Assembly (NCBI GenBank): GCA_031401035.1
Contig: JANNRA010000112.1
Location: 2,628-66,627 of the forward strand
Source of the DNA: a bacterium
Lineage (GTDB): Bacteria; Desulfobacterota; Binatia; HRBIN30; CADEER01
DNA length: 64,000 nucleotides
Reading direction: 5' to 3'
Part shown: piece after piece, positions 13,454-63,523 of the stretch
Position numbering within the stretch: position 1 is the first letter of the stretch
Layout: each line of letters starts with the position of its first letter
Made by a program: the position numbers and the translations under genes
Notes under the pieces: model-generated
Seen by the model: only the letters and a program-made list of their open reading frames with translations
Database searches by the model: none
Told to the model about the DNA's origin: nothing

Positions 13454-15013
13454 ATGGCCGACGCGTCCGTGGATGTCCTGATCGCCGGGGCCGGGCCCGT
13501 GGGGCTGACCCTGGGCGGACTGCTGGCCCGCCGCGGCCTGCGCTGCGCCGTCGTCGACCGCGCCGCGGCGCGCACCGATAAGTCGAAGGCCCTGGTCGTC
13601 TGGCCGCGCACGCTGGAACTGCTGGCGGCCGCCGGCATTGAGGCGGCGTTCCTCGGCGCCGGCAGCAAGGCGGGCGGCGGGCGCCTGTTCGGGCGCCGCC
13701 GCCAACTGGCCTGGCTCGACTTCTCGCGCAGCGGCGCGGCGTACCCGTTCAGCCTGATGATCCCGCAGAGCGAGACCGAGCGCCTGCTCGAAGTCGAGGC
13801 GCAGGCGGCGGGGGTGGAACTGCAGCGCCAGACGGAGCTGCTGCGCTTTGCCGCCGCCGCCGACGGCGTCGAGGTGACGCTGCGCGGCGGCGCCGGCGGC
13901 GAGCGGGTGGTGCGCTGCGGGTGGCTGGTCGGCTGCGACGGCGCGCACAGCGCGGTGCGGCACGGGTTGGGCCTCGCCTTTGCGGGCAGCGCGGAGAACA
14001 ACGACTGGTTCCTGGCCGACGTGCACGTCGACGGCGTCCTGCCGCGCGACGAGGTGAGCCTCTTCCTGCATCCCGACGGCGTGCTCGCCTGCTTTCCCAT
14101 TCCGCCCGATCGCTTCCGCGTCCTCGGCGACCTCGGCGCGGCGCAAGGCGAGCATCCGCGCGATCCGACCCTCGCCGACGTGCAGGCGTTGCTCGAGCGC
14201 CGCGGCCCGGGCCGTCTGACGGCACACGACCCGGTCTGGCTGGCTGGCTTCCGCATCAATGACCGGCAGGTCCCGTCGTATCGCCGCGGCCGCGTCCTGC
14301 TGGCCGGCGATGCCGCGCACATTCACAGTCCGGCCGGCGGACAGGGGATGAACACCGGCATGCACGACGCCTTCAATCTCGCCTGGAAGCTGGCACTGGT
14401 GCAGCAGGGGCGGGCCCGCGTCGAACTGATCGACAGCTACGACGCCGAGCGCCACCCGGTCGGCGCCCTCGTCGTGCGCGGCGCCGGCGCGCTGACGCGC
14501 CTGGCGACCATTCACAGCGCCGCCGGGCAGCGCCTGCGCGACGCCTTGGTGTCGCGGGCGTACTCGGTGCGGGCGCTGAGCGATCTGGTGGTCGGGGTGC
14601 TCACCGAAGTGGCGATCCACTATCGCGGCTCGCGCCTGTCGCGCGACGAGCGGCCGGTGCTGACCCGCTTGCGGGCGCGGCATGGCGGGGTGCGCGCCGG
14701 CGAGCGGGCGCCGGATGCGGCGGTGGACGATGCGGCGGGCGGCGCCACATCGCTCTTCGCGCTGCTGCGCGGCGGTCGGCACGTGCTGCTGCTGTCGGCG
14801 GACGCGCAGGCGGGACTGGCCGAGGCGGTGCAGCGCGCCTACCCGGACCTGGTCGACTGCGCGCGGCTGCGCGACCGACCGGCGCCCTACGCCACGCGCT
14901 CCGCGACGGCGATCCTGGTGCGGCCCGACGGCTACATCGGCTACCTCGGCGCGCCGGCAGTGGCGGCACGTGTCGTCGCCCACCTGGGCGCCTATCTGAT
15001 CCCCTCACCCTGA
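13454..15013 (+). CDS. FAD-dependent aromatic-ring monooxygenase (PheA/TfdB class)
   Basis: It has the N-terminal VDVLIAGAGPVGL motif, the DR motif and GDAAHIHSPAGGQGMNTGMHDAFNLAWKL. Confidence 0.85.
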   Translation: MADASVDVLIAGAGPVGLTLGGLLARRGLRCAVVDRAAARTDKSKALVVWPRTLELLAAAGIEAAFLGAGSKAGGGRLFGRRRQLAWLDFSRSGAAYPFSLMIPQSETERLLEVEAQAAGVELQRQTELLRFAAAADGVEVTLRGGAGGERVVRCGWLVGCDGAHSAVRHGLGLAFAGSAENNDWFLADVHVDGVLPRDEVSLFLHPDGVLACFPIPPDRFRVLGDLGAAQGEHPRDPTLADVQALLERRGPGRLTAHDPVWLAGFRINDRQVPSYRRGRVLLAGDAAHIHSPAGGQGMNTGMHDAFNLAWKLALVQQGRARVELIDSYDAERHPVGALVVRGAGALTRLATIHSAAGQRLRDALVSRAYSVRALSDLVVGVLTEVAIHYRGSRLSRDERPVLTRLRARHGGVRAGERAPDAAVDDAAGGATSLFALLRGGRHVLLLSADAQAGLAEAVQRAYPDLVDCARLRDRPAPYATRSATAILVRPDGYIGYLGAPAVAARVVAHLGAYLIPSP

Positions 15014-15047
15014 CCCTCTCCGCAGGGAGAGGGTCAGGGTGAGGGGG
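15001..15047. terminator. perfect 21-bp-stem hairpin of the GGGAGAGGGTCAGGGTGAGGG repeat family, between convergent genes
   Basis: CCCCTCACCCTGACCCTCTCC-gcag-GGAGAGGGTCAGGGTGAGGGG. It overlaps the monooxygenase stop codon. Confidence 0.6.
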
Positions 15048-17547: not shown

Positions 17548-17622
17548 GGGCGCCGCTGCGTCGGCGCCTGTGGCATCGGGCCGCGCTGGCCGCATCCAAC
17601 AGGCGCCGACGGAGCGGCGCCC
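17548..17622. repeat. palindromic MITE-like repeat, family B, intergenic copy
   Basis: GGGCGCCGCTGCGTCGGCGCCTGTGG....CAACAGGCGCCGACGGAGCGGCGCCC. A near-identical copy lies inside the alpha-2-macroglobulin gene at 26840-26920. Confidence 0.7.
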
Positions 17623-22232: not shown

Positions 22233-22826
22233 ATGTTCACCGGGATCATCGAAGAGGTCGGCGAGGTCGTCGAGGCCGGCGCCGGCACGTTGCGCATCCG
22301 CGCGCCGTTGGTGCTGACCGATGCCAAGCTGGGCGATTCGATCGCCATCAACGGTGTCGATCTGACCGTCGCCGAGATGGACGGCGAGCTGTTTTTCGCC
22401 AACGTCATGCCGGAGACCTACCGGCGCTCGAACCTCGGGCGCCTGCGCGTCGGCGAGCGCGTCAACCTCGAGCGCTCGGTACGGCCGAGCGACCGCCTCA
22501 GCGGCCACATCGTCCGCGGCGTCGTCGAGGGGCAGGCGATCGTGCACTCCTTCACGCCCGAGGCCGAGGCGGTGATCGCCCGCTTCACGACGCCGCCCGA
22601 GCTGTTGCGGTACATGGTGGTCAAGGGGCCGGTGTGCATCGACGGCGCCAGCCTGACGATTGTCGACAAGACCGCCGACAGCTTCGCCGTGTCGCTGGTG
22701 CAGTACACGCAGGGCCACACCAACCTGAGCGACAAGCAGCCGGGTGACGCGGTGAACATCGAGACCGACATCCTGGCGCGCTACGTCGAGGCGATCCTGG
22801 CGAGTCGGGCCGACAACGGAAGCTGA
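22233..22826 (+). CDS. ribE: riboflavin synthase
   Basis: MFTGIIEEVGEV with duplicated lumazine-binding repeats (..GDSIAINGVDLTV.. and ..GASLTIVDKT..). The protein is 197 aa. Confidence 0.9.
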   Translation: MFTGIIEEVGEVVEAGAGTLRIRAPLVLTDAKLGDSIAINGVDLTVAEMDGELFFANVMPETYRRSNLGRLRVGERVNLERSVRPSDRLSGHIVRGVVEGQAIVHSFTPEAEAVIARFTTPPELLRYMVVKGPVCIDGASLTIVDKTADSFAVSLVQYTQGHTNLSDKQPGDAVNIETDILARYVEAILASRADNGS

Positions 22827-22840
22827 TCGAGCCCCCCATC

Positions 22841-22931
22841 TGGGAGCGCGGGCGGCCCGCCCGCATCCGACTGGATGGCGCGGCGCCGCCGCGCCTGCAT
22901 TTGAACTGCGGGCGAGCCGCCCGCGCTCCCA
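22841..22931. repeat. palindromic MITE-like repeat, family A, copy 1, at the pbpC 3' end
   Basis: Arms TGGGAGCGCGGGCGGCCCGCCCGCA and TGCGGGCGAGCCGCCCGCGCTCCCA flank a roughly 40-bp centre. It is inverted relative to copy 2. Confidence 0.75.
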
Positions 22932-22942
22932 GACGGGGACCC

Positions 22943-25072
22943 TCAGCGGCCGCGGACGTCGAGTCCGGCGGTGGCCGCCACGGTGCCGGTGGCGTCGACG
23001 AGAGCGACGCGGTGGCGGCCGCGAGTCGGCGGCCACAGTACCATCCGTTCCGCGTCGCCGAGATCCTGGCCGTCGACCTGCCAGCGCAGGTCGCGCGCGT
23101 CCGCGGCCTCGAGGGCCAGGCGCTGCCGCGCCGCGCCGATCTCCGGATCGAGCGCGATGATGGTGCCGTCGGTCGGCGCCAGGATGCGCGGCGCGGTGGT
23201 CGGTGCGGCCGGCGCGCCCGACCCCGGCGCGGTGCCGGCGACGAACCACTCGTCGCCGACGCGCTCGAGGCCCGGCGGCGGCGCCGGCGGCGGACTCGGC
23301 AGGTCGCGGTGCAGCGCCTCCATGACCTCCTGCCAGATCGGCGCCGCGCCGCTGACGCCGCTGACGTCATGCATCGGCGCGCCGGAGAAGTTGCCGACCC
23401 AGACGCCGACGGTGAAGCGGCGCGAGAAACCGAGACACCAGTTGTCGCGCATGTCGGTGCTGGTGCCGGTCTTCGCCGCCGACCAGAAGCGTGTCGACAG
23501 GGGGCTCTCGAGTCCGAAGGTGACGGCGCGGCCGGCGCGGTCGGCGAGGATGTCGGCAACGATGAACGCCGCGGCTGGTGCCAGCACCGGTCGCGGCGCC
23601 GTCACGGCCTCGTCCGGGCGCAGCCGCAGCGGGCTCCAGGCGCCGCCGCTGGCGAGGACGCGATAGGCGCCGACGAGTTCCCACAGCGTCACGTCGGCTG
23701 AGCCCAACGCCAGCGCCGGACCGTACCAGCCGCCGCGGCGTCGCAGGCCGTCGAAGCCGAGGGCGCGCAGACGGTCGGCGAACGGGTCGGCGCCGAGCAG
23801 CTGCAGGGCACGCACCGCCGGCACGTTGAGCGAGCCGGCCAGGGCCGTGCGGACGCTGACCGGGCCGCGGAAGACGGCGTCGTAGTTGCGCGGTTGGAAG
23901 AGGCCGCCGGCGACGGCGATCTCCAGCGGCGTGTCGTCGAGTCGCGAGGCGGCGGTGAGTAGGCGTTGCTCGATCGCGGCGGCGTAGAGGAACGGCTTCA
24001 GCGTCGAGCCGGCCTGGCGGGCGGCGCGGACGCCGTCGACCTGCGCCGCGGCGGACAGGGCGCCGCTCGAGCCGACGTAGGCCAGCACGTCGCCGCTGCC
24101 GTTGTCGGCCACCAGCACCGCGGCGTCGCGTACGCCGCGCCCGTGCAGCGCCAGCAGATGGCGCTGGACGGCGTCGCGCGCCGCGCTCTGTACAGCGGCG
24201 TCGAGGGTCGTCGTCGTCGCGTCGCACGCGTCGCCCTCCGGCAGCAGGCGCCGCGCCAGGTGCGGCGCCTCGGCGCGGCGCGCCGGCAGGTGCGGTGTGA
24301 CGTCGATGACGCGGGCGATTGCGGCGTCGAGCGCCGCGGTGCCGGAACCGCCGTCGGCGCGTCGCAGGGCGGCGGCGCGGCGGGCGAGGGCGGGACGCTC
24401 GGCGTTGGGGGCACGCAGCAGTGAGGCGAGGACCGTCGCCTCGGCCGTGCTGAGGCCGTGCGGCGCCTTGCCGAAGAGCACCTCGGCCGCCGCCGCGATG
24501 CCCTGCAACTCACCGCGGAAGGTCACCAGGTTGAGGTAGGCGTCGAGGATCTCGTCCTTGCTCCAGATGGCCTCGAGTCGCCAGGCGGCGCGCATCTGGC
24601 GCCACTTCGCGGCGGCGCCGCGCGGCGCCCCCGGGCGGCGCAGGGACGGGTCGAGGAGCGCCGCCAGCTCCATCGCGTTGGTGCTGGCGCCGCGCGGCGC
24701 GCCGCCGCGCAGGCGCTGCCACGCCGCGGCGGCGACGGCGACGAGATCGACGCCGCCGTGGGTGTGGAAGCGGCGGTCCTCGGAGGTGAGCACGGCGTCG
24801 ATCAGCGCCGGCGAGACGGCGTCGAGGGGCGTCCAGGCGAGTCGCCGGCGGCGTTGGTCGACGCGGCGTTCGTGCAGCACGACGCCGTGCCGGTCGAGCA
24901 GCCGCGCGTCGGAGGGGCAGGCGGCGGCGCGGACGTCGGCGGCGGTGGGCGGATTGGGGACGTCGGGTTGCCACGCTATGGTAGCGAGCAGCGCCAGTAC
25001 GAGAAGTCCCCCAGCCGGGAGCGCGGGCGGCCCGCCCGCAGGCCAGATGACGGCGCGGCGGAGCCGCGCCAT
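22943..25072 (-). CDS. pbpC: penicillin-binding protein 1C (transglycosylase/transpeptidase)
   Basis: It has GT51 motifs (EDRRFHTHGGVD) and transpeptidase SxxK (GSTLKPFLYAAA). ATG start at MARLRRAVIW; the ORF track extends to 25129 through repeat copy 2. It is co-oriented with the upstream alpha-2-macroglobulin gene. Confidence 0.85.
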   Translation of the reverse strand: MARLRRAVIWPAGGPPALPAGGLLVLALLATIAWQPDVPNPPTAADVRAAACPSDARLLDRHGVVLHERRVDQRRRRLAWTPLDAVSPALIDAVLTSEDRRFHTHGGVDLVAVAAAAWQRLRGGAPRGASTNAMELAALLDPSLRRPGAPRGAAAKWRQMRAAWRLEAIWSKDEILDAYLNLVTFRGELQGIAAAAEVLFGKAPHGLSTAEATVLASLLRAPNAERPALARRAAALRRADGGSGTAALDAAIARVIDVTPHLPARRAEAPHLARRLLPEGDACDATTTTLDAAVQSAARDAVQRHLLALHGRGVRDAAVLVADNGSGDVLAYVGSSGALSAAAQVDGVRAARQAGSTLKPFLYAAAIEQRLLTAASRLDDTPLEIAVAGGLFQPRNYDAVFRGPVSVRTALAGSLNVPAVRALQLLGADPFADRLRALGFDGLRRRGGWYGPALALGSADVTLWELVGAYRVLASGGAWSPLRLRPDEAVTAPRPVLAPAAAFIVADILADRAGRAVTFGLESPLSTRFWSAAKTGTSTDMRDNWCLGFSRRFTVGVWVGNFSGAPMHDVSGVSGAAPIWQEVMEALHRDLPSPPPAPPPGLERVGDEWFVAGTAPGSGAPAAPTTAPRILAPTDGTIIALDPEIGAARQRLALEAADARDLRWQVDGQDLGDAERMVLWPPTRGRHRVALVDATGTVAATAGLDVRGR

Positions 25073-25103
25073 CCATTCGGAGCGGGCGGGCCGCCCGCGC
25101 TCC
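25017..25103. repeat. palindromic MITE-like repeat, family A, copy 2; contains the pbpC start codon
   Basis: Arms GGGAGCGCGGGCGGCCCGCCCGCA and GGAGCGGGCGGGCCGCCCGCGCTCC. The centre matches the reverse complement of the copy 1 centre. Confidence 0.75.
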
Positions 25104-25125
25104 AGGATTCGCGGCTCCAAGCTCC

Positions 25126-28100
25126 TCACGGCGCCACCTCAACGGCCTTGTTCGGGCTCTCGCCGAACATCTCCGGCGCGTAGAGGGCCTCGGCGCGCGT
25201 CGGCGGCAGGTCGAAGCGACCGCTCTGGTTCAAGCGCACATCGTACTCGACGCTCGTCCGCCCCTTGGGCAGGAACTGGAAGTAACCGCGGTAGGCGTCG
25301 AAACGGCGCTCGACGAAGTCCGGCGCTGCGACGTCGCTGCTGCCGCCGTTGGCGAGTTGGCTGTCGCGCGCCAGGCCAGTTCCGAGGTGCGAGGCGCCGG
25401 GGGGGATGGGATCGTCGAGCACCACCCAGGTCATGTCGCTCTGCGCCTCGACGTCGACGCGCACGCGCAGCCGGTCGCCGCGGCTCAGCCGGCCGACCTG
25501 GTGCGGATCGAGCGGCGTCACCGTCTTGCTGATGCGATAGCCGCTCGACAGCGGCGCACCGAGGGGAATCGCCGCGCGCGAGGTGACGGTGATCCACGGC
25601 GCGCCGGCGCCGCGCTGCTCGACCGTCAGCGTCGCCGGCGCCGCCGGCCAGGCGAAGCGAGCCGGGCCGCCCGGGGTCGGGGCCCACGCGAGTTCCTCGC
25701 TCGCGGTGCCGAGGCGCAGCGCCGTCACACCGCTGACCGGCGTCGCCTCGAACGCCGCGGCGAAGCGGCGCAGGGCCAGCACGCCCCAGGCATTGGCCAA
25801 CGTCGTGTCCCAGTGGCCGCGCCGTTGGCGCCCGAGGGCGCCGTGCAGCAGGCGTGCGGCGTCGTCCTTCCACAGGCCGAACTCGACGGTATGCAGCAGC
25901 AGGCGCACGGCGTTCTGGTCGGCCGAGGCCATCAACCACCACAGCCCGTCGCCGGCCTCGTCGGAGAAGCCCATCGTCGTGCCCTGCAGGTTCAGGCGGG
26001 CGCGGACGATCTGCTCCACCGCCGCCAGGCGCGCCGCGCGGTCGGGCAGCGTCGGCAGGCGCTGCAGGATGCTCCACCAGTCGAGCACCGCCGAGGTCGG
26101 CCACAGGTTGGGCTCGACGGAGATGCTGCCGAGCATGGCGGGATCGCCGGCGCCGAGTCGCGTCAGGGCGTCCAGGGCGGCGAGCTTACGCAGCGTCAGA
26201 TCGGGCGCGCCCAGGGGCGACTCGCGACGGATGCTGCCCTCGACGAAACCGCGCAGGCCGGCGATGAGCCGGTCGCGCGTCGCGGCGGGGATCTCCCAGC
26301 CGGCCGCCGCGGTGATGGAGACGACGTAGGCGGTGAGGACTTCGCTGCCGTGGCTGAGGGTCGGAAAGAACTTCAGCAGGCCGTCGCCGTCGAGGTACGA
26401 GGGCAGGGCGGCGGCGAGCGTCGTCCAGCCCGCCTGGTCGTCGAGGCCGACGCGGATCGAGGTCTGCTGCTCGAGGCATGTGTATGGGTAGCGGCGCAGG
26501 TAGTCGGCGACACCGCCGGCCGTACCGGCGAGCGAGGCGGCAGCAGCGACGACCAGCCCGCCGCGGCTCGGGAAGGCGTCGGCGGGGCGCGCCACCGGTA
26601 TGCGCAGCGGCTGGTCGGCGCGCAGCAGCGTCGCTTGCAGTGTGCGCACCGGTACCGCCTCGCGCACCTGCTGGGTGACGGCGAGGCGGTCGGCGACGCC
26701 GCCGGCGACGGCCTGCACGGTGTAGCGCAGCTGGTCGCCGTCGGCCGGGACGATGACCGGCCACTCGACGACGCGCGATTCACCCGGCGCGAGCGTCAGC
26801 GCCTGCGGCGCCAAAACCTGTTGCGGCGGCGTCTCCCCTGGAGGGCGGCGCCCCGTCGGCGCCTGTTGGATGGAGGCCGCCCCACCCGATGCAACAGGCG
26901 CCGACGGAGCGGCGCCCTCCAGGGACCCGGGTGCGGCGTCGGTTGCGGGCGATTCCACCGTCAGCGACACCTGCACCTCGAGCGGCCGATCGGTGGTGTT
27001 GCGCAGCGTGAACTGGGCCGGGAAGCGGTCGCCGTGGCGGACCAGCGGCGGCAGGCCGCTGAGCAGCATCAGTTCCTGCGTCGTGCGGATCTCGGTGGCG
27101 CCGCTGCCGAAGCGGCCGAGGCCGGCGGTGGCGACGGCGACGATGCGGAAGGCGGTGAGCGAGTCGTTGAGCGGCACCTCGACCGTGGCATGCCCCTGCG
27201 CATCGAGCGGCACGCGACCGCTCCACAGCAGCAGCGTGTCGAACAACTCGCGCGTCGCCTGCCGGCCGCCGCCGCCGCCTGCCGGCAGCGCCTTGCGGCC
27301 GTAATGGCGTTTGCCGATCACCTCGAGCTGCGCGGTGGCGGTGCGGACATCGTAACCGCGCCGCCCCATCATCGCCTCGAGCAGGTCCCAGCTGGGGTTG
27401 GGCGCCAATTCGAGCAGGCCCTCGTCGACCGCCACCAGCGCCACCTCGCTGCCCGGCGGCGGCGGGGCGCCGTCGCCGTCGCGCACCGCGACGCGCACCA
27501 CGGCGGTGTCGCGGACGCGATAGGTCGGCCGGTCGGCCTGCACGTCGACGCTGAGGGCGTGCGCGCGCCAGCCGACGCGGATCTCGGCGAGGCCGAGCTT
27601 GAAAGCCGGCTTGCCGAGGTCGACCATCGCCGTCGGCTGCGTGTCGGCGACGCGCCCGCGCACCGCCAGCACCGAGATGAATGTATTGGGCGCGTACGGC
27701 CCCAGCACCGGCACCTCGACGCGCGGCTCGCCGCCGCCGATCTGCAGCACGCGCGCCTCGGCGATGCCCTCGCGCTCCACCGTCACCAGCGCCGTGGCGC
27801 GCTGGAAGGGCATGCGCACCTGCAGGCGCGCCGTCTCGCCCGGGGCGTATTCGCGCTTCTCGGGCAGCACATCCATGCGGTCGGCGGCGTCGACGGCGAA
27901 GCCGCCCGGGTCGTCGCCGTCGACGTAGACGCTGCTGTGCGCCGCGGCGCCGCGGCCGGCGTCGTCGCGCACGCGCACCTGCAGGATGATCTCGCCGTCG
28001 GCCGGCGCTGCGGCGCGGCAGGCGAACAGGCCCTGCGCGTCCGTGGCGCCGGCGCAGACGCGCCCCAGCGGCGTCGTCTCTTCGACGTGCTCGTAGCCGT

Positions 28101-30903
28101 AGAAGCCGCCGACGAGGCGCTTGCGGTGCGAGTAGTAGCGGTGCCGGAAGGCGTCGACCTCCACCGCCACATCGGCCACCGGCCGGCCGCGCGTGTCGAG
28201 CACGGCGACCTTGGCGTCGAGGCCGTCGCGCTGCCCGGCCCAGTGTTCGGCGGCGATGCCGGGCAGCAGCGCCGCCGGCCACAACGGCGTCGTCGCCGCG
28301 GCGGTCTGTACCTCGCCGTTGGGGTCGCGGTACTCGATCTCGGCGACCAGTTCGCGCGGCGTCTGCACCGCCGGCAGGCCGCCGATCTCGGCCCGCGCCG
28401 TGCCGGCGGCGTCGAGCGTCAGCGTCTGCGTGCTCAGCACGGCGGTCGACTCGGCGCTGTCCGACGCCTGCTCCTCCGACTGGCGCTGGCGCACGACGCC
28501 TTCGCGCACGGCCCCGTTGGCGAAAGTGAACGACTCGAAGGCCGCGTTGCGCGGCGCCGCGCGCTCGCGCACCTGGGCGCGCAGCACCACCGGCAGCTCG
28601 CCGGCGGCGCCGCCGGCGAGATAGCGGACGGCGAGGTCGACCGGCGCGGAGGGGGCGGCGACCAGCGGCTCGGCCGGCAGTTGCACCGTCGCCTTCATCA
28701 GCGGCACGCGGAACTGCTCGACGCGGAAGCTGCCGGCGGTGACCTCGCGGCCGGCGGCGTTGGCCATGGCGATCTCGTACTGGCCGAGCTTGGCGCCGGG
28801 CGGGATCGGCCAGTCCTGGGTGGCGAGGCCGTCGCCGTCCCAGCTGAGCGGGAGGTCGTAGGTCTCGCTGCTGCCGAGGTGGCGCACGATCGCCTTCACC
28901 GGCCGCGCCTCGCCCTCGACCGCGGCGAAGCCGGCCAGCGTCTGGGCGCGCAGGACGTGCTTCATGTGCACCGTGTCGCCGGCGCGGAAGAGGGCGCGGT
29001 CGAGGATGGTGTGCGCCAGCACCGGCGCGTCGTCGCGCTCGGCGGGCAGATTGAAGCGCCACGCTTCGAGGCCGCGCCCCCAGGACGAGTGGACGAAGCC
29101 GAGGTCGCCGCTGGTTTCGGCGGTGACCAGCAGGCCGCCGTCGAGGCCGGTCAGCGCCGCGGCGGAGTAGTGGTCGCGGTAGTCGATGCCGGTGAAGTCC
29201 TTGTAGCGGTCGCCGTCGGGACAGTACTTCGCCGCGCCCGGCGCCGGCAGGCCGGTGAAGCGCGCCAGGCCCTGCGCGTCGGTGACGCCGCTGGCGAGCA
29301 CCGCGCCGCTGCAGTCCTGCACCGCGACGCGCGCGCCGGCAACCGGCGCCGCCGCGTCGAGCGTCGTCACCCAGGCCAGCGCGTTCTCGCGCGCCCACTT
29401 GAAGTGAACCGCCAGGTTGGTGACCAGGGCACCGCCCGGCACGAACAGCGGCTTGTCCTCGCCGAGCAGCGCGGCACCGAGGCGCGGGCTGCTGAGTTCG
29501 ACGAGATAGAGGCCGGGCCGGTCGAACGGGATGCCGACCACCTGCATCGTCTCCGGCCCGTCGGGCTGCGGCAGCGTGAAGCTGCGCGACGCGGTGCCGG
29601 CGGGCAGGTCGGCGAACATCGAGCGGTCGCGCCGCGCCGCCGCCAGGCGGTGCAGCCAGGGCAGCACGTCCTCGGCACGCTCGACGCGTGCGACGCTGCC
29701 GCCGAGGCGGGCGTACAGGTCCCGCACTGTTGCCGCCCAGCCGTCGGGGCGCTCGCGCGTCGCCCGCACCTCCTGGCCGCGCAGGTCGGGCTCGAGGTTG
29801 CGGATGGTCACCGGCAGGGCCGGGTCGGCCTCGGCCTCGAGCAGGCCGAAGCGAGCGGCGAACCTGGCCAGCGGCGGGTAGGGGGCGGTCTGCACCGTCG
29901 TCGGCGTGTCGGCGAGGGCGCGACCGGCGTCGTCGCGCAGATCGCTGGGCAGGGCGAGGCGCAGGGTGGTCGAGGCGGGGAAGGGCGGCGCGAACTCGAC
30001 GGCCGAGACGAAGTCGCTCGGCGTGTCCGCGGCGATCGGATCGCGGCTGGTGCCCTCGTCGCCGACCAGGCGCACCTGCCGCGCGGTCTCCCACGCCACC
30101 GGGGCGCTGAAGCGCAGCGCGATCGGCGTCAGCGGCGTGCAGTCGGCCTTGGCGTTCTCGCGCTCGCAGGTCACCTCGGCGGTGAAGCGCGGGCGGGTCT
30201 GGTAGGACAGCACCTGGTCGGCGGCGGTGGCGATGCCGGACGGGCTGGCGATGCCGGCGCCCCACACCAGGCGCACCGCGGCGGCGTCGGGGAAGGTCTG
30301 CCGCGCCGCCAGCAGCACGAACGGCGGCGTCGGCTTCATCCAATAGGGCAGGCCGGCGACGACCGCCTCGCGCTCGGGGCCGTCGAGGAGGCGGACGCCG
30401 ACGCGTTCGCTCAGTCCCGCCACCTCGAAACCGGCGCGGGCGAGGATCGAGTCCGGCGTCGCCTCGCCGTCGAGTTGCAGGACGAAGACCTGCTGCGCGT
30501 CGATGCGGTCGCTACCGTCGCCCGGCACCGCCGCGGTGATCGCCGGTCCGCCGGTGGAGAAAGCGAAGCGCGCCGGCGTCACCGCCGCGCCGGCGCGGCT
30601 CTTCAGGTCGGCGCGCAGCGCGAAGGTGCAGCGGGTGCCGGCGGGCAGGTCGCGCTCGAAGTCGTAGGCCCAGGTGCGTACGTCGACCCAGCGCGCCGTG
30701 CCCGGCACCGCGCACTCGACGGCGAACGGCGCCGCGACGTCGCGCAGGTCGCCGAAGGGCACCATCGGCGCCGAGAACACCGCCGTCGCCTGGCGCACCT
30801 GCTTCACCTCGCCCTGCGGCGCGAAGCGCTCCACCGTCACCGCCGCCGGCGCCGCCGTCGCGGCCCCCACCATCATCAGGATCACCGCCGCCAGTTGCCG
30901 CAT
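25126..30903 (-). CDS. bacterial alpha-2-macroglobulin (YfhM-like), secreted, about 1926 aa
   Basis: Start at MRQLAAVILMMVGAATAAPA (signal peptide; no lipobox Cys). It carries the thioester motif CLEQ (RYPYTCLEQQTS) and has MG-domain architecture. Confidence 0.9.
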   Translation of the reverse strand: MRQLAAVILMMVGAATAAPAAVTVERFAPQGEVKQVRQATAVFSAPMVPFGDLRDVAAPFAVECAVPGTARWVDVRTWAYDFERDLPAGTRCTFALRADLKSRAGAAVTPARFAFSTGGPAITAAVPGDGSDRIDAQQVFVLQLDGEATPDSILARAGFEVAGLSERVGVRLLDGPEREAVVAGLPYWMKPTPPFVLLAARQTFPDAAAVRLVWGAGIASPSGIATAADQVLSYQTRPRFTAEVTCERENAKADCTPLTPIALRFSAPVAWETARQVRLVGDEGTSRDPIAADTPSDFVSAVEFAPPFPASTTLRLALPSDLRDDAGRALADTPTTVQTAPYPPLARFAARFGLLEAEADPALPVTIRNLEPDLRGQEVRATRERPDGWAATVRDLYARLGGSVARVERAEDVLPWLHRLAAARRDRSMFADLPAGTASRSFTLPQPDGPETMQVVGIPFDRPGLYLVELSSPRLGAALLGEDKPLFVPGGALVTNLAVHFKWARENALAWVTTLDAAAPVAGARVAVQDCSGAVLASGVTDAQGLARFTGLPAPGAAKYCPDGDRYKDFTGIDYRDHYSAAALTGLDGGLLVTAETSGDLGFVHSSWGRGLEAWRFNLPAERDDAPVLAHTILDRALFRAGDTVHMKHVLRAQTLAGFAAVEGEARPVKAIVRHLGSSETYDLPLSWDGDGLATQDWPIPPGAKLGQYEIAMANAAGREVTAGSFRVEQFRVPLMKATVQLPAEPLVAAPSAPVDLAVRYLAGGAAGELPVVLRAQVRERAAPRNAAFESFTFANGAVREGVVRQRQSEEQASDSAESTAVLSTQTLTLDAAGTARAEIGGLPAVQTPRELVAEIEYRDPNGEVQTAAATTPLWPAALLPGIAAEHWAGQRDGLDAKVAVLDTRGRPVADVAVEVDAFRHRYYSHRKRLVGGFYGYEHVEETTPLGRVCAGATDAQGLFACRAAAPADGEIILQVRVRDDAGRGAAAHSSVYVDGDDPGGFAVDAADRMDVLPEKREYAPGETARLQVRMPFQRATALVTVEREGIAEARVLQIGGGEPRVEVPVLGPYAPNTFISVLAVRGRVADTQPTAMVDLGKPAFKLGLAEIRVGWRAHALSVDVQADRPTYRVRDTAVVRVAVRDGDGAPPPPGSEVALVAVDEGLLELAPNPSWDLLEAMMGRRGYDVRTATAQLEVIGKRHYGRKALPAGGGGGRQATRELFDTLLLWSGRVPLDAQGHATVEVPLNDSLTAFRIVAVATAGLGRFGSGATEIRTTQELMLLSGLPPLVRHGDRFPAQFTLRNTTDRPLEVQVSLTVESPATDAAPGSLEGAAPSAPVASGGAASIQQAPTGRRPPGETPPQQVLAPQALTLAPGESRVVEWPVIVPADGDQLRYTVQAVAGGVADRLAVTQQVREAVPVRTLQATLLRADQPLRIPVARPADAFPSRGGLVVAAAASLAGTAGGVADYLRRYPYTCLEQQTSIRVGLDDQAGWTTLAAALPSYLDGDGLLKFFPTLSHGSEVLTAYVVSITAAAGWEIPAATRDRLIAGLRGFVEGSIRRESPLGAPDLTLRKLAALDALTRLGAGDPAMLGSISVEPNLWPTSAVLDWWSILQRLPTLPDRAARLAAVEQIVRARLNLQGTTMGFSDEAGDGLWWLMASADQNAVRLLLHTVEFGLWKDDAARLLHGALGRQRRGHWDTTLANAWGVLALRRFAAAFEATPVSGVTALRLGTASEELAWAPTPGGPARFAWPAAPATLTVEQRGAGAPWITVTSRAAIPLGAPLSSGYRISKTVTPLDPHQVGRLSRGDRLRVRVDVEAQSDMTWVVLDDPIPPGASHLGTGLARDSQLANGGSSDVAAPDFVERRFDAYRGYFQFLPKGRTSVEYDVRLNQSGRFDLPPTRAEALYAPEMFGESPNKAVEVAP
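26840..26920. repeat. family B palindromic repeat inserted in-frame inside the alpha-2-macroglobulin coding sequence
   Basis: GGAGGGCGGCGCCCCGTCGGCGCCTGTTG...CAACAGGCGCCGACGGAGCGGCGCCCTCC. It is translated as ..LEGAAPSAPVASGGAASIQQAPTGRRPPGE.. with no frame break. Confidence 0.7.
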
Positions 30904-31072
30904 GGGGACGTTTGTCCACTGCCGCCGGTGAATCCGCAAGCTCCTCGCGGGTGGAATCCGCAAGCGGCTCGCCCGCGAAGGCAGGGACCTGGAGACGGAG
31001 GCTAACGCTGGGCCGATTGGGATCCGCGCACGGCCGCGCAATCCGAATTACAGCGGGAATTCATACTGCCGC

Positions 31073-34000
31073 TTGCCATTCATTACGAGTTGCAGGCTAA
31101 AAGGATCCGTGCGCGTTTCGTGGCCGCTCGTCGCGGGCCTTGCGCTGGTTGCGGCGGTGCCGGCCGTAGCGCAGTCGCCCGCCTACTTGGTCAAGGACAT
31201 CAACCGTGCGTCGGTCGATCCCTTCACGTCGGGGGCCTACCCCCTGGGCTTCGTCCTTCTCGGCGGGCGTGCCTACTTCACTGCCGGCGATGCCGCGCAC
31301 GGTCGCGAGTTGTGGCGCTCTGACGGTACGCCTGGCGGCACCACCTTGGTAGCTGACCTAAATCCGGGCCAGGATGACAGCTCGCCGCGCGACCTCACCG
31401 TCATCGATGGGGCGCTGTGGTTCCGCGCCTGGGATGGCCGTCGGGGTTGCGGCGTGTGGCGTAGCGACGGCAGTCCCGCCGGGACGCGGCTGGTGGCGAT
31501 CGTGCACGGTCGCTTCTTCGAGTGCGCCGAGGACGCACGCGAGGGCGGGCAGCCGACCGGATTCGCCGGAATCGCCGGCGCGGTGTTGTTTGCAGCCCGC
31601 ATCGGCGATGGCGGCAGCGAATTGTGGCGCACTGACGGCACGGAGGCCGGCACTGAGCCGTTGCTCGACATCAACCCGGGCGACGCTCCCAGTATGCCTC
31701 GCGGCTTGGTGACCCATGGCGGGGCGGTGTACTTTGCCGCCGACGACGGCGTCCGGGGCACGGAGCTGTGGCGCAGCGACGGCACGGCAGCGGGGACGCG
31801 CCTGGTGCGCGATATCGATCCCGGTGCGCCATCGGGCCTCCAGCCGGCGTCCCTCGCCGACCCGTACTTCTTTCCTGTGCGGCTGTATGTCGTGAGCGGC
31901 GGCCTCGTGTTCGCGGCCTTCGACAGCACACATGGCGTGGAGCTGTGGCGCAGCGATGGCAGCGAAGCAGGGACGTCGATGCTGCTCGACAGCGAACCAG
32001 ACTCGCTTCTCAACGGGCTGCGATTCATGGGTCGAATCGTCCCACCCTTCGTGGCGCTCGATGCGGGTTCCGTCGCCTTCTTCAGCGTCACCGCCACCGA
32101 GGCGCCGGCCCGCCTTCTCGTCTGGCGCAGCGATGGCACCGCGCTGGGCACCACGGCGATGGCCGCGGTAGACTATATGAGTCCGGGGTACATCGGCTCC
32201 CCGCCAGGGGATGCCGCGCGCCTCGGAACAGGACTGGTTTTCAGGGTCGCCGAGCAGGGCGCTACTTCCCTCTGGCGCGTCGATGGTGCGGGCGGCGAGC
32301 CGCAGCGCGTCACCGTGCCCACGCTTCGCGTCGGTGCCATGACGGTGCTGGGCCAGCAGGTGCTGTTCTTCGCCAGCACCGGAACCTCCCGGTGTGGTCT
32401 GTGGCGCAGCGACGGCACACAGGCCGGAACGATTCTGCTGCGCGACGTCGCACCCACTCGCGGCGAGTGTCCGGAGGACTTCGACATCGAGCTGCCCGGA
32501 CACCGCACCGCGGTGGTTGATGGGCGGGTGCTGCTGGCGGCGGACGAGGACGAGCAGGGGGTGGAACTGTTCGCCAGCGATGGCAGCGTCTCGGGAACGG
32601 GTCTGCTGGGGGACCTCAACGACACTCGTCTGCGCACGGGTGGCGTTGGTCTGGAGCTACATGGGTCCTTGGACGATCGTCTCTTCTTCTCGACCTTCGG
32701 CGGCGCGGCATCGGACCTGGATACCGTAGGCGCGCCTACCGGACTCTGGGCTACCGATGGCACGCAAGCGGGAACGGTGCTCCTCGGCGAGATGACTCCG
32801 TGGTGGGGCGGCGCGGTCGGCGATTACTTCGTCCTCGCCGGCCCAGATGGCGTTGGATCTGCGATCTGGGCGAGTGATGGTACTCCAGCCGGAACGCGGG
32901 TGATCGCCTCTGGCGTCGGAGTGAGTCGCGCCCCGATCACCACGTCCAAGGGGCTCTTCCTCCAGGTCAACAGCCCCAGCGAGTCCGAGCGCCAACTCTG
33001 GCGCAGCGACGGAACGGCCTCGGGGACGAAGCGCGTCATCGGGTTCCCCTTGGAGGGCTACTCGACGTCCTTTGGCGCCTGGGCCGCCTTTGGCCGTGGC
33101 CTGGTCTTCATCATCAATAATCGGGACGGAGGCGAGTTGTGGCATACCGACGGAACGATCGGCGGCACCGATCGCATCGAGGTGTTTCCCAACGCCGTCG
33201 CTGACGCGATGATGGAAGTCGACGGGACACTCTTCCTCCACGTTCTTCCCTTTGGCGCTGCCAGGGGCAGCCAACTGTGGCGAACTGATGCAACGGTGGC
33301 CGGCGCAGTGCTCATCCAAGATTTCGCGACCTCGCCGACGCCGGCTCGCGTGTTCTGGCTCGCCGCAGGACCTGGCGCTCTCTTCTTCTCCGCTGGAGAC
33401 GTGCTGTCCGGACTCGAACTCTGGCGTTCCGACGGAACCGCCCCTGGCACGCGGCGCGTGCGCGATGTCGCGCCGGGTCCGACTGGTGCGCTGGTGGATC
33501 CGGCTGGAAGGATTCTCCAGCAGACCGGCGTGGCCCGCGGCGCGCTGGTGTTCATCGCCGACGACGGGGCGCACGGTCCAGAGCCGTGGCGAAGCGACGG
33601 CACGGAGGCGGGGACGACGCTGCTGCGCGATTTCGACCCGCGCCTGCCCGTGGCGCTGGCTAACGGCTTGGCGCTGTCGCTGGCGGACGTCGGCGACCGA
33701 GTCCTGTTGGCACCCCTTGACCGCGACGCCGGCGTCGAGCCGTGGATCACCGACGGCACGGCCCCGGGTACGCGCCGCCTGGCTGACATCGCACCAGGGG
33801 TCCGCTCGGGGTTGAAGAGCGGGGCGCCCTTCGCCTCCACGCGCACCCATGTATTCTTCGGCGCCGATGACGGGAGCAGTGGCTACGAGCTGTGGGCCAT
33901 GCCGCGCGGCGCCTTCGAGGGCGGCGGCTGCGCCGGCGATTGCAACGGCGACGGACGCGTCGCCATCGACGAACTGGTACGTGGGGTTGGGATCGCACTC

Positions 34001-34108
34001 GGCACTACCGCCCTCGACACCTGCCTCGGGTTAGACGCCGACGTGGATGAGACCGTGTCGATCGCCGAGCTGGTCGGCTCCGTTGCCGACGCGCTCGGCG
34101 GGTGCTGA
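31073..34108 (+). CDS. secreted ELWxxDGT-repeat protein with a dockerin-like C-terminal domain
   Basis: There are at least 12 repeats of the (E/G)LWRSDGT(x)AGT pattern. The signal peptide is VRVSWPLVAGLALVAAVPAVAQ; an alternative GTG start lies at 31109. The C-terminus reads CAGDCNGDGRVAIDELVRGVGIALG...DADVDETVSIAELVGSVADALGGC. Confidence 0.8.
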   Translation: MPFITSCRLKGSVRVSWPLVAGLALVAAVPAVAQSPAYLVKDINRASVDPFTSGAYPLGFVLLGGRAYFTAGDAAHGRELWRSDGTPGGTTLVADLNPGQDDSSPRDLTVIDGALWFRAWDGRRGCGVWRSDGSPAGTRLVAIVHGRFFECAEDAREGGQPTGFAGIAGAVLFAARIGDGGSELWRTDGTEAGTEPLLDINPGDAPSMPRGLVTHGGAVYFAADDGVRGTELWRSDGTAAGTRLVRDIDPGAPSGLQPASLADPYFFPVRLYVVSGGLVFAAFDSTHGVELWRSDGSEAGTSMLLDSEPDSLLNGLRFMGRIVPPFVALDAGSVAFFSVTATEAPARLLVWRSDGTALGTTAMAAVDYMSPGYIGSPPGDAARLGTGLVFRVAEQGATSLWRVDGAGGEPQRVTVPTLRVGAMTVLGQQVLFFASTGTSRCGLWRSDGTQAGTILLRDVAPTRGECPEDFDIELPGHRTAVVDGRVLLAADEDEQGVELFASDGSVSGTGLLGDLNDTRLRTGGVGLELHGSLDDRLFFSTFGGAASDLDTVGAPTGLWATDGTQAGTVLLGEMTPWWGGAVGDYFVLAGPDGVGSAIWASDGTPAGTRVIASGVGVSRAPITTSKGLFLQVNSPSESERQLWRSDGTASGTKRVIGFPLEGYSTSFGAWAAFGRGLVFIINNRDGGELWHTDGTIGGTDRIEVFPNAVADAMMEVDGTLFLHVLPFGAARGSQLWRTDATVAGAVLIQDFATSPTPARVFWLAAGPGALFFSAGDVLSGLELWRSDGTAPGTRRVRDVAPGPTGALVDPAGRILQQTGVARGALVFIADDGAHGPEPWRSDGTEAGTTLLRDFDPRLPVALANGLALSLADVGDRVLLAPLDRDAGVEPWITDGTAPGTRRLADIAPGVRSGLKSGAPFASTRTHVFFGADDGSSGYELWAMPRGAFEGGGCAGDCNGDGRVAIDELVRGVGIALGTTALDTCLGLDADVDETVSIAELVGSVADALGGC

Positions 34109-34239
34109 GCGGAGGGCTCGCCGTCAGCGCGCCGGATCGAACGCCGAAGCGGCGGTAGCCGGCCGCTCGCGCCGCGAAATCGCCGCTTCGCCCGGCCGGG
34201 CTTCCGTCTCCGGGTGGGCTCGGATAGGCCTCACCGTTC

Positions 34240-35592: not shown

Positions 35593-35634
35593 CCGCTGCT
35601 TCCCCACTCCCGCATTGCTCCCGGGGTTCCGCTT

Positions 35635-35749
35635 CCCTCTCCCGCATGACTTGCGAGAGGGCCAGGGTGAGGGCTCCTTCTCGGGTCCCCGCCGGTCCGG
35701 AGAAGGTCCCCTCTCCCCAACCCTCTCCCGCACGTCATGCGGGAGAGGG
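35635..35749. repeat. cluster of GAGAGGG / GGGTGAGGG hairpin repeats upstream of imuA
   Basis: CCCTCTCCCGCatgacTTGCGAGAGGGCCAGGGTGAGGG spans 35635-35673. A perfect hairpin CCCTCTCCCGCA-cgtca-TGCGGGAGAGGG spans 35721-35749. Confidence 0.65.
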
Positions 35750-35825
35750 GGTCGGAAAACTGCATGAGAGCAGGGGCCGGAAACTGCCATTGCCCAGGGG
35801 CGAAAATTAGGCGAAAACCTCCCCC

Positions 35826-38554: not shown

Positions 38555-41500
38555 CGACTACGTCGAGCTGCGCACGCGCAGTGCCTTCTCCTTCCTCGCC
38601 GGGGCGTCGTTGCCGGAGGATCTGGTGGCGCGGGCGGCGGCGCTCGATCACGGCGTCCTCGCCATGGGCGATCGCGACGGGGTGTACGGCGCGCCGCGCT
38701 TTCATCAGGCGGCGGTGAAGGCCGGCGTGCGCGGCATCGTCGGTTGCGAGCTGACGACGGTGGACGGGGCGCTGTACGTGCTGGTCGCCGAGCGGGTGGG
38801 ATATCGCAACCTCTGCCGGCTGCTCAGCGACGCCAAGCTGCGCGCGGCGAAGGGCGCGGCGGTGGTCGAGTGGAGCGATCTCGACGGGCGCAGCGACGGA
38901 CTGATCTGCCTGGCGCGGCAGCCGGCGGGGCTGGCGCGCCTGCAGCGCCTGTTCCCGGGGCGGCTCTACCTCGAGCTGCAGCGCCACCTCGACGCGGACG
39001 AGGAGCGGCACAATCGCGTCCTCGCCGCCGCCGCCGAACACCACCGCCTGCCGCTGGTGGCCACCAACGACGTGCGCCACGCGGCGCCGGACGGGCGGCC
39101 GCTGCTCGACGTGCTGACCTGCCTGCGCGAACACACGACGCTCGACGCCGCCGGCCGCCGCCTGCTCGCCAACGCCGAGCGCCATCTCAAGCCGGCGCGC
39201 GAGATGGCGGCGCTGTTCCGCGACCAGCCGGCGGCGCTGGCCAACACGCGCCGCATCGCCGAGCAGTGCGCCTTCGGGCTCGCCGACCTCGGCTACCGCT
39301 TCCCCGACTATCCGCTGTCGCCCGGCGAGACGGCCGACGGCCACCTGCGGGCGCTCACCGAGGCCGGCGCGCGCGGGCGCTACGGTGCGCTGACGCTGCG
39401 CGTGCGGCGCCAGCTCGAGCACGAGCTGGCGGTGATCGCGCAGCTCGGGCTGGCCGGCTACTTCCTCATCGTCTGGGACATCGTGCGCTACTGCCGCGAG
39501 GCCGGGATCCTGGCGCAGGGGCGCGGCTCGGCGGCCAACTCGGCGGTCTGCTACGCGCTCGGCATCACCGCCGTCGACCCGATCGGCATGGAACTGCTCT
39601 TCGAGCGCTTCCTGTCGCCGGAGCGCGGCGAGTGGCCGGACATCGACATCGACCTGCCGAGCGGCGAGCGGCGCGAGCGGGTCATCCAGTACGTCTACCA
39701 GCGCTACGGCCCGCGCGGCGCGGCGATGACCGCCAACGTCATCACCTACCGCACGCGCAGCGCCGTGCGCGAGGTCGGCAAGGCGCTGGGGTTCGCCGAG
39801 GCGCAGGTGGCGCGGTTGTCGAAGCTGCTGCACCGCTTCGAGTTCCGCGACGACCTCGACCAGCTGGCGGAGCAGTTGCGGGCCGGCGGCGTCGACCCCG
39901 CCGCGCCGCGCGTGCGCCTGTTGGTCGATCTCGTCGCGCGCATCCAGAACCTGCCGCGCCATCTCGGCCAGCACTCCGGCGGCATGGTCATCGCGGCCGG
40001 GCGGCTCGACGAGGTGGTGCCGCTCGAGCCGGCGGCGATGCCGGGGCGGGTGGTGGTGCAGTGGGACAAGGACGACTGCGCCGATCTCGGCATCATCAAG
40101 GTCGACCTGCTCGGCCTCGGCATGATGGCGGTGCTGGAGGACACCCTACCGCTGATCCGCGTGCACGAGGGGGTCGAGGTGGACCTCGCCCGCCTGCCGG
40201 CCGACGACCCGGCGACCTACGCCATGCTGCGGCGCGCCGATACGATCGGCGTCTTCCAGGTCGAGAGCCGGGCGCAGATGGCGACGCTGCCGCGCCTGCG
40301 GCCGGAGCGCTTCTACGACCTGGTCGTCGAGGTGGCGCTGATCCGCCCCGGCCCGATCGTCGGGCAGATGGTGCACCCGTACCTGAACCGCCGCCGCGGC
40401 CGCGAGGCGGTGACGTACGCGCATCCCGACCTCGAGCCGATCCTGGCGCGCACGCTGGGCGTGCCGCTCTTCCAGGAGCAGCTGCTGCGCATGGCGATGG
40501 CGGTCGCCGACTTCAGCGGCGGCGAGGCCGAAGAGCTGCGCCGCGCCATGGGCTTCAAGCGCTCCACCGAGCGCATGCGCGAGATCGAGGCGCGCCTGGT
40601 CCGCGGCATGGCGGCACGCGGCATCGCCGCGGCGGCGCAGGACGGCATCATCACCAGCATCACCTCGTTCGCCCTCTACGGCTTCCCCGAGTCGCACGCC
40701 GCCAGCTTCGCGCTGCTCGCCTACGCCTCGGCGTACCTGCGCCGCCACCACCTCGCCGCCTTCACCTGCGCCATGCTCAACAACTGGCCGCTCGGCTTCT
40801 ACCACCCCGCCACCCTGGTGAAGGACGCCCAACGCCACGGCCTGCACATCCTGCCCGTCGACGTGACGATCTCACCCTGGAACTGCACCCTCGAACCGGC
40901 AGCCATGCAGGCGGCCGCCCAGAGTCCCCCAGCCGAAGGAAGGTGTGCAGATGCCCAGAGTCCCCCAGCCGGGACCGCGGGCGTCTCGCCCGCAGCCGAC
41001 GCCGGTTGGAGCAACCACCTCTCCCTCCGCCTCGGCCTGCGCTACGTCTCCGCCCTGCGCGCCGACACCGCCGCGCGCATCGAGTCCGCCCGCGCCGCCG
41101 CCCCCTTCGCCGACCTCACCGATCTCACCCACCGTGCCGCGCTGCGCGACGACGAACTACAGACCCTCGCCCACGCCGGCGCCTTCGCCCCCTTCGGCCT
41201 CACCCGCCGCGACGCCATGTGGCAGGCCGCCGCCGTCAGCCGCGATCCGCTCTTCGCCGGCGCCCGCGTCCGCGCGACCGCCGCGCCGCTCCCCGCCGCG
41301 CCGTTGCCCGAGATGACCACCGTCGACCGCACCCTCGCCGACTACACAACCCTCGGCCTCACCGCCGGCCCGCATCTGATGAAGTACCTGCGCCCGAGTC
41401 TCGACGCCCAGGGCGTGCTGCGCAGCCGCGATCTGGTGCGGGAGAAAAACGGCGCCTGGGTGAAGCTCGCCGGGCTGGTCATCGTCCGCCAGCGCCCCGG

Positions 41501-59403: not shown

Positions 59404-59490
59404 GGAGAGGTGCGTGAGCCCGGTTGAAACGGCACGACTCGAAATCGTGTGACCCGCAAGGGTCCGTGGGTTCAAATCCCACCCTCTCCG
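59404..59490 (+). tRNA. tRNA-Ser (anticodon CGA), class II with a long variable arm
   Basis: Acceptor GGAGAGG/CCTCTCC, anticodon loop CTCGAAA, T-loop GGTTCAAATCC. The gene is 87 nt. Confidence 0.85.
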
Positions 59491-63467: not shown

Positions 63468-63523
63468 CTTGCCGCGCCGCGCTGGCGCGAGTACGGAAGG
63501 AGTCGCCGCGAGGATGAGCACGA

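Follow-up and report, generated by a model that had tools for sequence, protein, structure and literature searches.

At one locus of an uncultured bacterium of the Binatia, the gene pbpC, which encodes penicillin-binding protein 1C (PBP1C), lies between two inverted copies of a palindrome of about 100 bp, one of which is situated within the 5' part of the gene. The locus is part of a stretch of 64,000 nucleotides (contig JANNRA010000112.1 of assembly GCA_031401035.1, positions 2,628 to 66,627), which was analysed as a whole and is called the window below. The arrangement raises the question what these palindromes are, how they came to lie on both sides of a gene for a cell-wall enzyme, and what they may do to its expression. 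The answer that we regard as probable is that they are REPINs, that is, paired repetitive extragenic palindromic (REP) sequences, of a family linked to REP-associated tyrosine transposases (RAYTs), and that the second copy has replaced the start of pbpC, with possible consequences for RNA structure and translational coupling.

Two inverted palindromes around pbpC

Both palindromes belong to one repeat family, designated family A. Copy 1, at 22829..22940 (forward strand), is a head-to-head REP doublet with units at 22834-22865 and 22907-22938 and a spacer at 22866-22906. Copy 2, at 25005..25106 (reverse strand), has the opposite orientation, with units at 25015-25039 and 25082-25106 and a spacer at 25040-25081. 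The two copies are supported by a repeat finder and RNA folds, together with arm matches for copy 1 and orientation alignments for copy 2; the repeat finder returned inverted repeats with arms of 32 nt and 94% complementarity for copy 1 (I3) and of 25 nt and 96% for copy 2 (I7). Each copy is an imperfect palindrome of about 100 bp, in which each arm is itself a hairpin. The preliminary description of this DNA had placed two palindromes at 22841-22931 and 25017-25103; they are real, and those intervals are their cores. Their mutual inversion, which it also claimed, is borne out by the alignments: the copies share 95/114 identities in inverted orientation against 89/116 in direct orientation, and their centres alone 35/43 against 29/44. 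The tags are outermost in both doublets and the spacers, of 42-43 nt, are 81% alike, that of copy 1 containing a hairpin of its own (GGCGCGGCG/CGCCGCGCC).

The unit consists of a 7-bp GC hairpin, GCGGGCG-NNN-CGCCCGC, followed by an unpaired tag GCTCC(CAG), and reads C-Y-G-GGAGC-hairpin on the opposite strand, a layout that resembles the Pseudomonas REP unit GT(A/G)GGAGC-hairpin. At three of the four ends it extends outwards as G(T/C)CCCC(C)A(G/T)C(C/T)GGGAGC. The 22-nt arm GGAGCGCGGGCGGCCCGCCCGC has four matches in the window at 0-1 mismatch and a fifth, degenerate match with three mismatches at 40972-40993, inside dnaE2. Shuffled sequence of the window, which has a G+C content of about 72%, yields a mean of 0.05 matches, and none of 100 shuffles reaches five; five units within 64 kb therefore stand against 0.05 expected.

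Both copies are packed tightly against genes. The longest ORF of pbpC, of 728 aa, extends over 22943..25129 on the reverse strand (Pfam Transgly, Transpeptidase and BiPBP_C), with its stop codon at 22943-22945. Convergent with it is a lumazine-binding, riboflavin synthase-like gene, called ribE-like here, at 22239..22826 on the forward strand (Pfam Lum_binding, 143.6 bits; synteny with the relative L001 introduced below), with its stop at 22824-22826. The two stops are 116 bp apart, and copy 1 takes up almost the whole gap, being 2-7 nt from the ribE-like stop and 4 nt or less from that of pbpC; the earlier remark that it abuts the pbpC stop is true, and it can be extended to the ribE-like stop. 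Upstream of pbpC, its operon partner codes for a bacterial alpha-2-macroglobulin (A2M). The longest ORF of this gene occupies 25126..31041 on the reverse strand (Pfam A2M_BRD, A2M and bMG10), its true start being judged by homology to be near 30903. Copy 2 lies within the pbpC ORF, starting 19 nt past the A2M stop.

The start of pbpC in the window and in its relatives

Copy 2 encodes about residues 9-42 of the 728-aa pbpC product, and the membrane helix LLVLALLATIAW follows directly after it. Two start codons come into consideration. The candidate GTG at 25127..25129 (reverse strand) lies outside the element, about 20 nt upstream of it, and overlaps the A2M stop TGA (25128-25126) as GTGA; the motif GAGGTG is found 5 nt upstream, and an identical database protein (P0001, 728 aa, source NCBI) begins at this codon. 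The alternative is an ATG at 25070..25072 (reverse strand; MARLRR), in frame and predicted to be buried in the hairpin, before which no recognisable Shine-Dalgarno sequence was found on reading the sequence. It had been proposed that copy 2 supplies the pbpC start, with both the ATG and the upstream GTG inside it, in a gap of 54 bp between the two genes. The ATG does lie in the centre of copy 2 in the pbpC frame, while the GTG, which is the annotated start, is not part of the element, so that only the former half of the proposal stands. If the GTG is the real start, the 54-bp gap disappears, and copy 2 is wholly coding and not the donor of a start codon. Between copy 2 and the membrane helix there is no in-frame ATG, GTG or TTG; the next possible start is a GTG at codon 84, past the anchor.

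The closest pbpC homologue (P0002, 90% protein identity) is located on a metagenome contig of the Joint Genome Institute (JGI), L001, which has the gene order of the window: imuA, A2M, pbpC and ribE-like. Its DNA is near-identical to that of the window through the A2M stop (GCGCCGTGAGGAGC); after that the alignment breaks off over some 150 nt and picks up again at the codons of the membrane helix, exactly where copy 2 ends and the helix starts. L001 has an A2M-pbpC spacer of 79 nt and a pbpC start of its own (MISAAMMRAFC...), and the GTGA frame meets a stop codon there. Copy 2 is absent from the orthologous site of L001 and of two further relatives, L134 and L135, which are about 70% identical and have no family A units within 22 kb. 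Copy 1 is absent from the gap downstream of pbpC in L001, where the ribE-like gene directly follows pbpC, as it does in the window.

Where orthologues lack the element, their N-termini are short and unrelated (MISAAMMRAFC..., MKRIAG..., MTRTVV...), and more distant orthologues pass from M-(K/N/T)-R straight into the helix. Because the orthologues that lack the element, L001 included, start differently, the element-derived N-terminus of pbpC is, as far as these sequences go, new in the lineage of the window. The alignment with L001 shows the 5' end of pbpC to have been replaced by copy 2, and the comparison of both sites shows that the doublets have arrived, or been retained, only in this lineage. 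An inspection of the N-terminus in relatives had been suggested as a check at the outset, and its outcome supports a remodelling by copy 2. The synonymous divergence (dS) between window and L001 is 0.10-0.25, which makes the difference between them recent. The corresponding dN/dS ratios are 0.31 for pbpC, 0.28 for A2M and 0.13 for ribE; they average both lineages, and a very recent loss of function could escape them. The A2M protein and its L001 orthologue share 1785 identical residues in an alignment of 1977 columns.

By the same comparison, copy 1 sits in one usual REP position, between convergent stop codons, and copy 2 in the other, just past the stop of the upstream A2M gene. The spacer between A2M and pbpC was short, and the event that placed copy 2 also deleted the start codon and the cytoplasmic tail that pbpC originally had. 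The reading frame is now obliged to pass through copy 2, leaving some 30 arginine-rich, element-encoded residues before the retained anchor.

In one of the more distant relatives, L135 (GCA_019637795.1, 10001-10004), the called start of pbpC is a CTG, which shares bases with the TGA stop of A2M (CTGA). An overlap or coupling of the two genes may, on this evidence, predate the arrival of the REPIN.

The REP unit in other genomes and its transposase neighbours

A search of species-representative genomes for exact matches to the pattern GGAGCGCGGGCGNNNCGCCCGC returned at least 120 loci (L002-L121) with the unit GGAGCGCGGGCG-TCY-CGCCCGC, in metagenome-assembled genomes (MAGs) of at least 10 phyla. 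Among the listed matches are Acidobacteriota, Verrucomicrobiota (with Opitutaceae MAGs), Planctomycetota, Chloroflexota, Alpha-, Beta- and Gammaproteobacteria, Desulfobacterota, Binatia, Sumerlaeota and Armatimonadota, as well as doubtful bins, for example Prevotella, Bacteroidales and two Firmicutes. The positions that the pattern leaves free are biased in these listed matches, both upstream (C 61%, T/C 84%, G 62%) and in the loop (T 77%, C 96%, C/T 96%). Furthermore, in all fetched DNA a perfect 7-bp hairpin stands immediately before 187 of 2395 GCTCC sites, against 0-10 for seven control pentamers. With these two biases, the matches are not due to chance.

The stems of partner units covary (GCGGCCA/TGGCCGC, GCAGGCA/TGCCTGC and GCACGCT/AGCGTGC, with an RGA loop). 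Some units stand by themselves, and others are paired head-to-head (21 pairs, with spacers of 12-250 nt) or tail-to-tail (two pairs); one Gemmataceae genome has identical arms with differing spacers. On such sequence evidence, the arms act as independent REP units and dimers and not as the ends of one transposon. An all-against-all comparison of the ORFs within 2.5 kb of the 120 loci gave no recurrent neighbour gene in its top clusters; the sole recurrent "protein" near the unit consists of spurious ORFs across a larger acidobacterial repeat. In Acidobacteriota (Versatilivorator and Terriglobia; L005, L034, L041, L042, L079, L094, L108 and L110) the unit bounds larger conserved repeats, about 180-250 nt long, whose interiors show two distinct conserved sequences.

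The link to transposases comes from six fetched loci (L049, L106 and L130-L133) in which REP units flank a RAYT gene of the Y1/HUH type. RAYT transposases act on single-stranded DNA hairpins such as REP units. Inspection of loci with two units about 600 bp apart led to L106 (Planctomycetales, 191 aa) and L049 (Stellaceae), in both of which the units enclose a Y1/HUH transposase. Both proteins pass the Pfam Y1_Tnp cut-off (39-44 bits, cut-off 23); with the NCBIfam model REP_Tyr_transpos, L049 reaches 88.8 bits and passes the cut-off of 80, and L106 reaches 58 bits. The two transposases are 43% identical, and their REP units differ at one position only, in the loop (TCT against TCC). Homologues are numerous and bear the JGI name "REP element-mobilizing transposase RayT".

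Four more RAYT loci (L130-L133) were derived from three homologues, L130 and L131 encoding the same protein. REP units or doublets lie on both sides of the gene in L130, L131 and L133, and L132 has a downstream doublet and a looser upstream unit. The stems of these loci covary (GCGGGCG or GCCGGCG), with a tail GCTCC or GGTCC, and a strict detector, which demanded a perfect stem plus GCTCC, found no further units in the 20 kb of each. In the Stellaceae-like Alphaproteobacteria (L049 and L130-L133) the RAYT gene is fixed inside a liv-type (branched-chain amino-acid) ABC transporter operon, between two ATPase genes and two permease genes and flanked by REP doublets (about 10001-10740 in L130-L133). 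This alphaproteobacterial RAYT looks like a vertically inherited single-copy gene, as its fixed place suggests; within its clade the stems of the REP unit vary.

How does family A compare with systems already described? A REPIN consists of two inverted REPs and a spacer, and its RAYT is a single-copy gene, according to PMC3337134, PMC5581495 and the RAREFAN preprint (10.1101/2022.05.22.493013). Family A fits the REPIN concept of Bertels and Rainey, since it is an inverted REP pair with a spacer and its units flank RAYT genes. It has a tagged short palindrome, an inverted pair, a RAYT flanked by the units in other genomes, and presence or absence that varies among relatives. As to position, copy 1 is extragenic at 3' ends, copy 2 is in the pbpC ORF and a third unit is in dnaE2. 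The REP/REPIN-RAYT systems of E. coli (REP-BIME, bacterial interspersed mosaic element) and Pseudomonas (Nunvar 2010; Bertels and Rainey 2011; Ton-Hoang 2012) have the same tagged GC-rich hairpin, inverted pairs with a spacer, units beside a single Y1/HUH RAYT gene, near-stop position and variable presence among close relatives. They differ in the tag, GTAG or GTGG against C(T/C)GG-GAGC here, and in the host, which in our case is an uncultured high-GC lineage and not a gammaproteobacterium.

Tagged REPs, dispersed over eight phyla, have been surveyed by Di Nocera 2013 (PMC3733652), and that survey offers the closest parallels. The eight phyla include Planctomycetes and the verrucomicrobium Opitutus terrae, with the tag GTGG. 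REP dimers are head-to-head and tail-to-tail with spacers of 20-100 bp, and REPs lie less than 20 bp from the stops of convergent or unidirectional genes. Intragenic REPs encode 20-30 residues and are enriched in replication and repair genes, DnaE2 among them. N-terminal REPs are known too, many of them judged non-coding on account of a downstream start. This GTAG-tagged super-family (O. terrae GTAG-20, tag GTGG) shares with family A the dimers, the near-stop sites, the compensatory stems and the intragenic and N-terminal copies, as judged from the descriptions of that super-family. Intragenic and N-terminal REPs have therefore already been described; relative to that survey, what differs here is that no downstream start is left in pbpC, so that copy 2, unlike most of the N-terminal cases discussed there, cannot be bypassed.

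Rickettsia palindromic elements (RPE) are also comparable, being in-frame palindromes that add about 30-50 residues (partly after PMC3733652), as happens here in pbpC, dnaE2 and, through an unrelated family B, A2M. They differ in their unrelated sequence and AT-rich host. RPE-1 is not known to have a link to a RAYT.

PMC3337134, PMC5581495 and 10.1101/2022.05.22.493013 describe REPIN-RAYT systems as specific to a lineage and passed on vertically, whereas a nearly identical 22-nt unit occurs here in many phyla. A bolder reading is that a single REP-RAYT lineage has kept a near-identical 22-nt substrate over at least 10 phyla, despite RAYTs of 43% identity, that it was recently active in this genome and repeatedly tolerated in coding sequence (pbpC and dnaE2), and that the pbpC copy was perhaps co-opted as an N-terminus and coupling hairpin. 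We put this forward tentatively and consider it rather doubtful as a whole. If a single lineage is involved, either repeated horizontal spread or an unusually tight and ancient constraint between protein and DNA would be needed, and both conflict with the lineage-specific, vertical picture. A REP unit and a RAYT clade that extend over many phyla of uncultured bacteria bear on the strict verticality of REPIN-RAYT systems.

Several searches with the element or the window returned little. No PLSDB plasmid matched the consensus doublet in blastn, where the low-complexity filter may have masked the query, and a full-text literature search for the exact arm sequences and encoded peptides gave nothing relevant. 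In the whole window, Rfam 15 at gathering scores detected only the SRP RNA and two tRNAs, outside the elements; at permissive E-values, the matches to copy 1 were confined to generic long-hairpin microRNA models and fell far short of their thresholds.

Competing explanations, transcript effects and further palindromes

A number of observations weigh against the REPIN interpretation or limit it. The tag of family A is C(T/C)GG-GAGC and not the canonical GTAG, and the units of the window carry the minority loop GCC/GCT in place of TCY. The same loop is found in units of a relative, L113 (a 1.48-Mb contig shared with P0006), with the outer motif GTCCCCC.CCGGGAGC. Neither the 64-kb window nor the loci of the relatives contained a RAYT, in searches by tblastn and with a profile hidden Markov model of 41 RAYTs against six-frame ORFs. 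A metagenome scan with the family A spacer (GGATGGCGCGGCNCCGCCGCGCC) gave eight matches, 0 with REP arms, and these were rejected as members of the family and taken for chance GC hairpins. Neither site is a clean insertion, as the surrounding spacer DNA also differs from L001, and a loss of the copies in L001, rather than a gain in the window, is formally possible on these alignments. The effects on RNA and translation, finally, are all predictions.

Inverted copies around a single gene could also suggest the ends of a composite or miniature inverted-repeat (MITE-like) transposon of the DDE type that brought pbpC to its place, and pbpC had been likened at first to a gene flanked by such an element. 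That likeness is not upheld. The A2M-pbpC order is kept without either copy in L001, L134 and L135, with the ribE-like gene next in L001, which puts pbpC in its ancestral place. Moreover, no transposase lies between or beside the copies, no direct repeats or target-site duplication are found at their borders, no gene recurs beside the unit across the 120 loci, and the transposases flanked by the units are Y1 and not DDE enzymes. A composite or MITE origin was rejected on these grounds, and we give it next to no credence. Scarcely more credible is the idea that the palindromes are immobile operon hairpins, terminators or attenuators, that evolved locally and resemble each other through a shared function. 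Their location at operon boundaries and their very stable folds would fit, but the same 22-nt unit recurs in dnaE2, 16 kb away, in at least 120 unrelated loci and beside RAYT genes, and close relatives have neither copy at the orthologous sites. There is no T-run either, and a scan for intrinsic terminators found no terminator-like site at copy 1 or copy 2, so that an intrinsic (Rho-independent) terminator was rejected as well.

The main rival concerns the consequence for pbpC. Copy 2 could have inactivated the gene, the open frame being a by-product of stop-poor, GC-rich DNA and pbpC a young pseudogene or the source of a negligible product. The native start and tail are indeed gone. A hairpin of about -100 kcal/mol falls within the first 40 codons, with a base that, in the predicted fold, blocks access to both the GTG and its Shine-Dalgarno sequence, and the internal ATG lacks a Shine-Dalgarno sequence; many N-terminal REPs are, besides, probably non-coding, according to Di Nocera 2013 (PMC3733652). 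On the other side, the frame of 728 codons is intact, the dN/dS of pbpC is similar to that of A2M, though averaged over both lineages, and the membrane helix is kept right after copy 2 with an arginine-rich tail before it, as expected of a type II anchor. Furthermore, the GTGA overlap with the upstream GAGGTG is a classic coupling layout, and the pbpC of L135 also overlaps the A2M stop. Intact frame, anchor and dN/dS together make inactivation unlikely, although clearly less so than the two preceding alternatives.

If copy 2 is, as we prefer, a translated REPIN, its RNA structure deserves attention. The predicted folding energies are -104.6 and -94.1 kcal/mol for the two strands of copy 1, at a z-score of about -10, and -101.7 kcal/mol for copy 2 on the mRNA strand; taken together, the doublets range from about -94 to -105 kcal/mol and their z-scores from -5 to -10, and both would form very stable hairpins in the transcript. 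In a predicted fold of 206 nt, the base of the copy 2 hairpin extends further and pairs the Shine-Dalgarno/GTG region with the codons right after the element. With this region paired as predicted, independent initiation would be inefficient, and the site would have to be opened by ribosomes that are completing A2M. Translation would most likely proceed from the GTG that overlaps the A2M stop, as coupled re-initiation, with the internal ATG as an alternative.

In E. coli, a REP located between operon genes or near a stop (within about 15 nt) makes the upstream mRNA more stable, reduces expression of the distal gene or causes terminating ribosomes to stall. The intercistronic REP of malE-malF and REPs near stops were reportedly studied by Newbury in 1987 and by Liang, Rudd and Deutscher in 2015. 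Family A shares with the malE-malF case a REP hairpin between two operon genes or a few nucleotides from a stop; it differs in that copy 2 is a translated doublet, whose hairpin has three times the length of a single REP. Because E. coli REPs behave in this way, protection of 3' ends by copy 1 and a lowering of PBP1C by copy 2 are to be expected. Copy 1 would probably shield the 3' ends of both convergent mRNAs and insulate the two genes, and copy 2 would probably lower pbpC expression relative to A2M and tie it to A2M translation. An RNA hairpin that tunes the translation of pbpC relative to A2M, as surmised at the outset, seems plausible from the folding model.

The locus seems to be a natural case in which a REPIN has replaced the start of a gene for an essential-class cell-wall enzyme, apparently still under purifying selection. 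The A2M-PBP1C pair may also be an example of a mobile hairpin that rewires translational coupling in a conserved two-gene operon. There is a practical side to this for genome annotation. GC-rich REP doublets that are read in frame can give false or altered N-termini and internal inserts, as in pbpC and dnaE2 and, via family B, in A2M, and calls of start codons and domain boundaries in high-GC MAGs need to be checked against relatives.

The family A unit in dnaE2 is single and lies at 40919..40993 on the forward strand, with GGACCGCGGGCGTCTCGCCCGC at 40972-40993 and the outer motif CCCAGAGTCCCCCAGCCG occurring twice. It is in frame within the dnaE2 ORF (38532-41807), in the part that encodes the helix-hairpin-helix region of DnaE2, an error-prone polymerase. 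Compared with two DnaE2 homologues, the protein of the window has about 35 extra residues exactly at the REP unit, and its HHH_6 domain spans 125 residues against 90 positions of the profile. Family B, a palindrome unrelated to family A, occurs inside A2M at 26836-26924 (89 nt) and at a junction of convergent genes at 17548-17622. Its arms form the hairpin GGCGCCG-ACGGAG-CGGCGCC, and the A2M copy, which ends in CTCCAGGG, is read through in frame and adds 30 residues relative to the L001 orthologue. Both family B copies are absent from L001; together with the two missing family A copies, this gives four palindromic insertions over about 24 kb at a dS of about 0.1-0.2.

A third palindromic family, C, is represented by a perfect 21-bp hairpin at 15001-15046 and by nested inverted repeats at 35602-35757, which share GAGAGGG(T/C)CAGGGTGAGGG. 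From the 5' end of A2M to the imuA-like gene, the window has a segment of 4.8 kb (30940-35786), with two long ORFs (31073-34108 and 34047-35810), which ends at family C palindromes; L001 has only about 150 nt there. Between imuB and dnaE2, at 38286-38421, comparison with L001 shows 132 nt of additional sequence in the small PD-(D/E)XK gene (PDDEXK_3, GxxExxY-type) of the window; the L001 gene is called as an 89-aa protein, and its shortness probably reflects an internal deletion there. The window also contains genes for the bacterial small SRP RNA (63529-63627) and for two tRNAs (63382-63467 and 59404-59490), and an inverted repeat at 63513-63640 is the SRP RNA helix.

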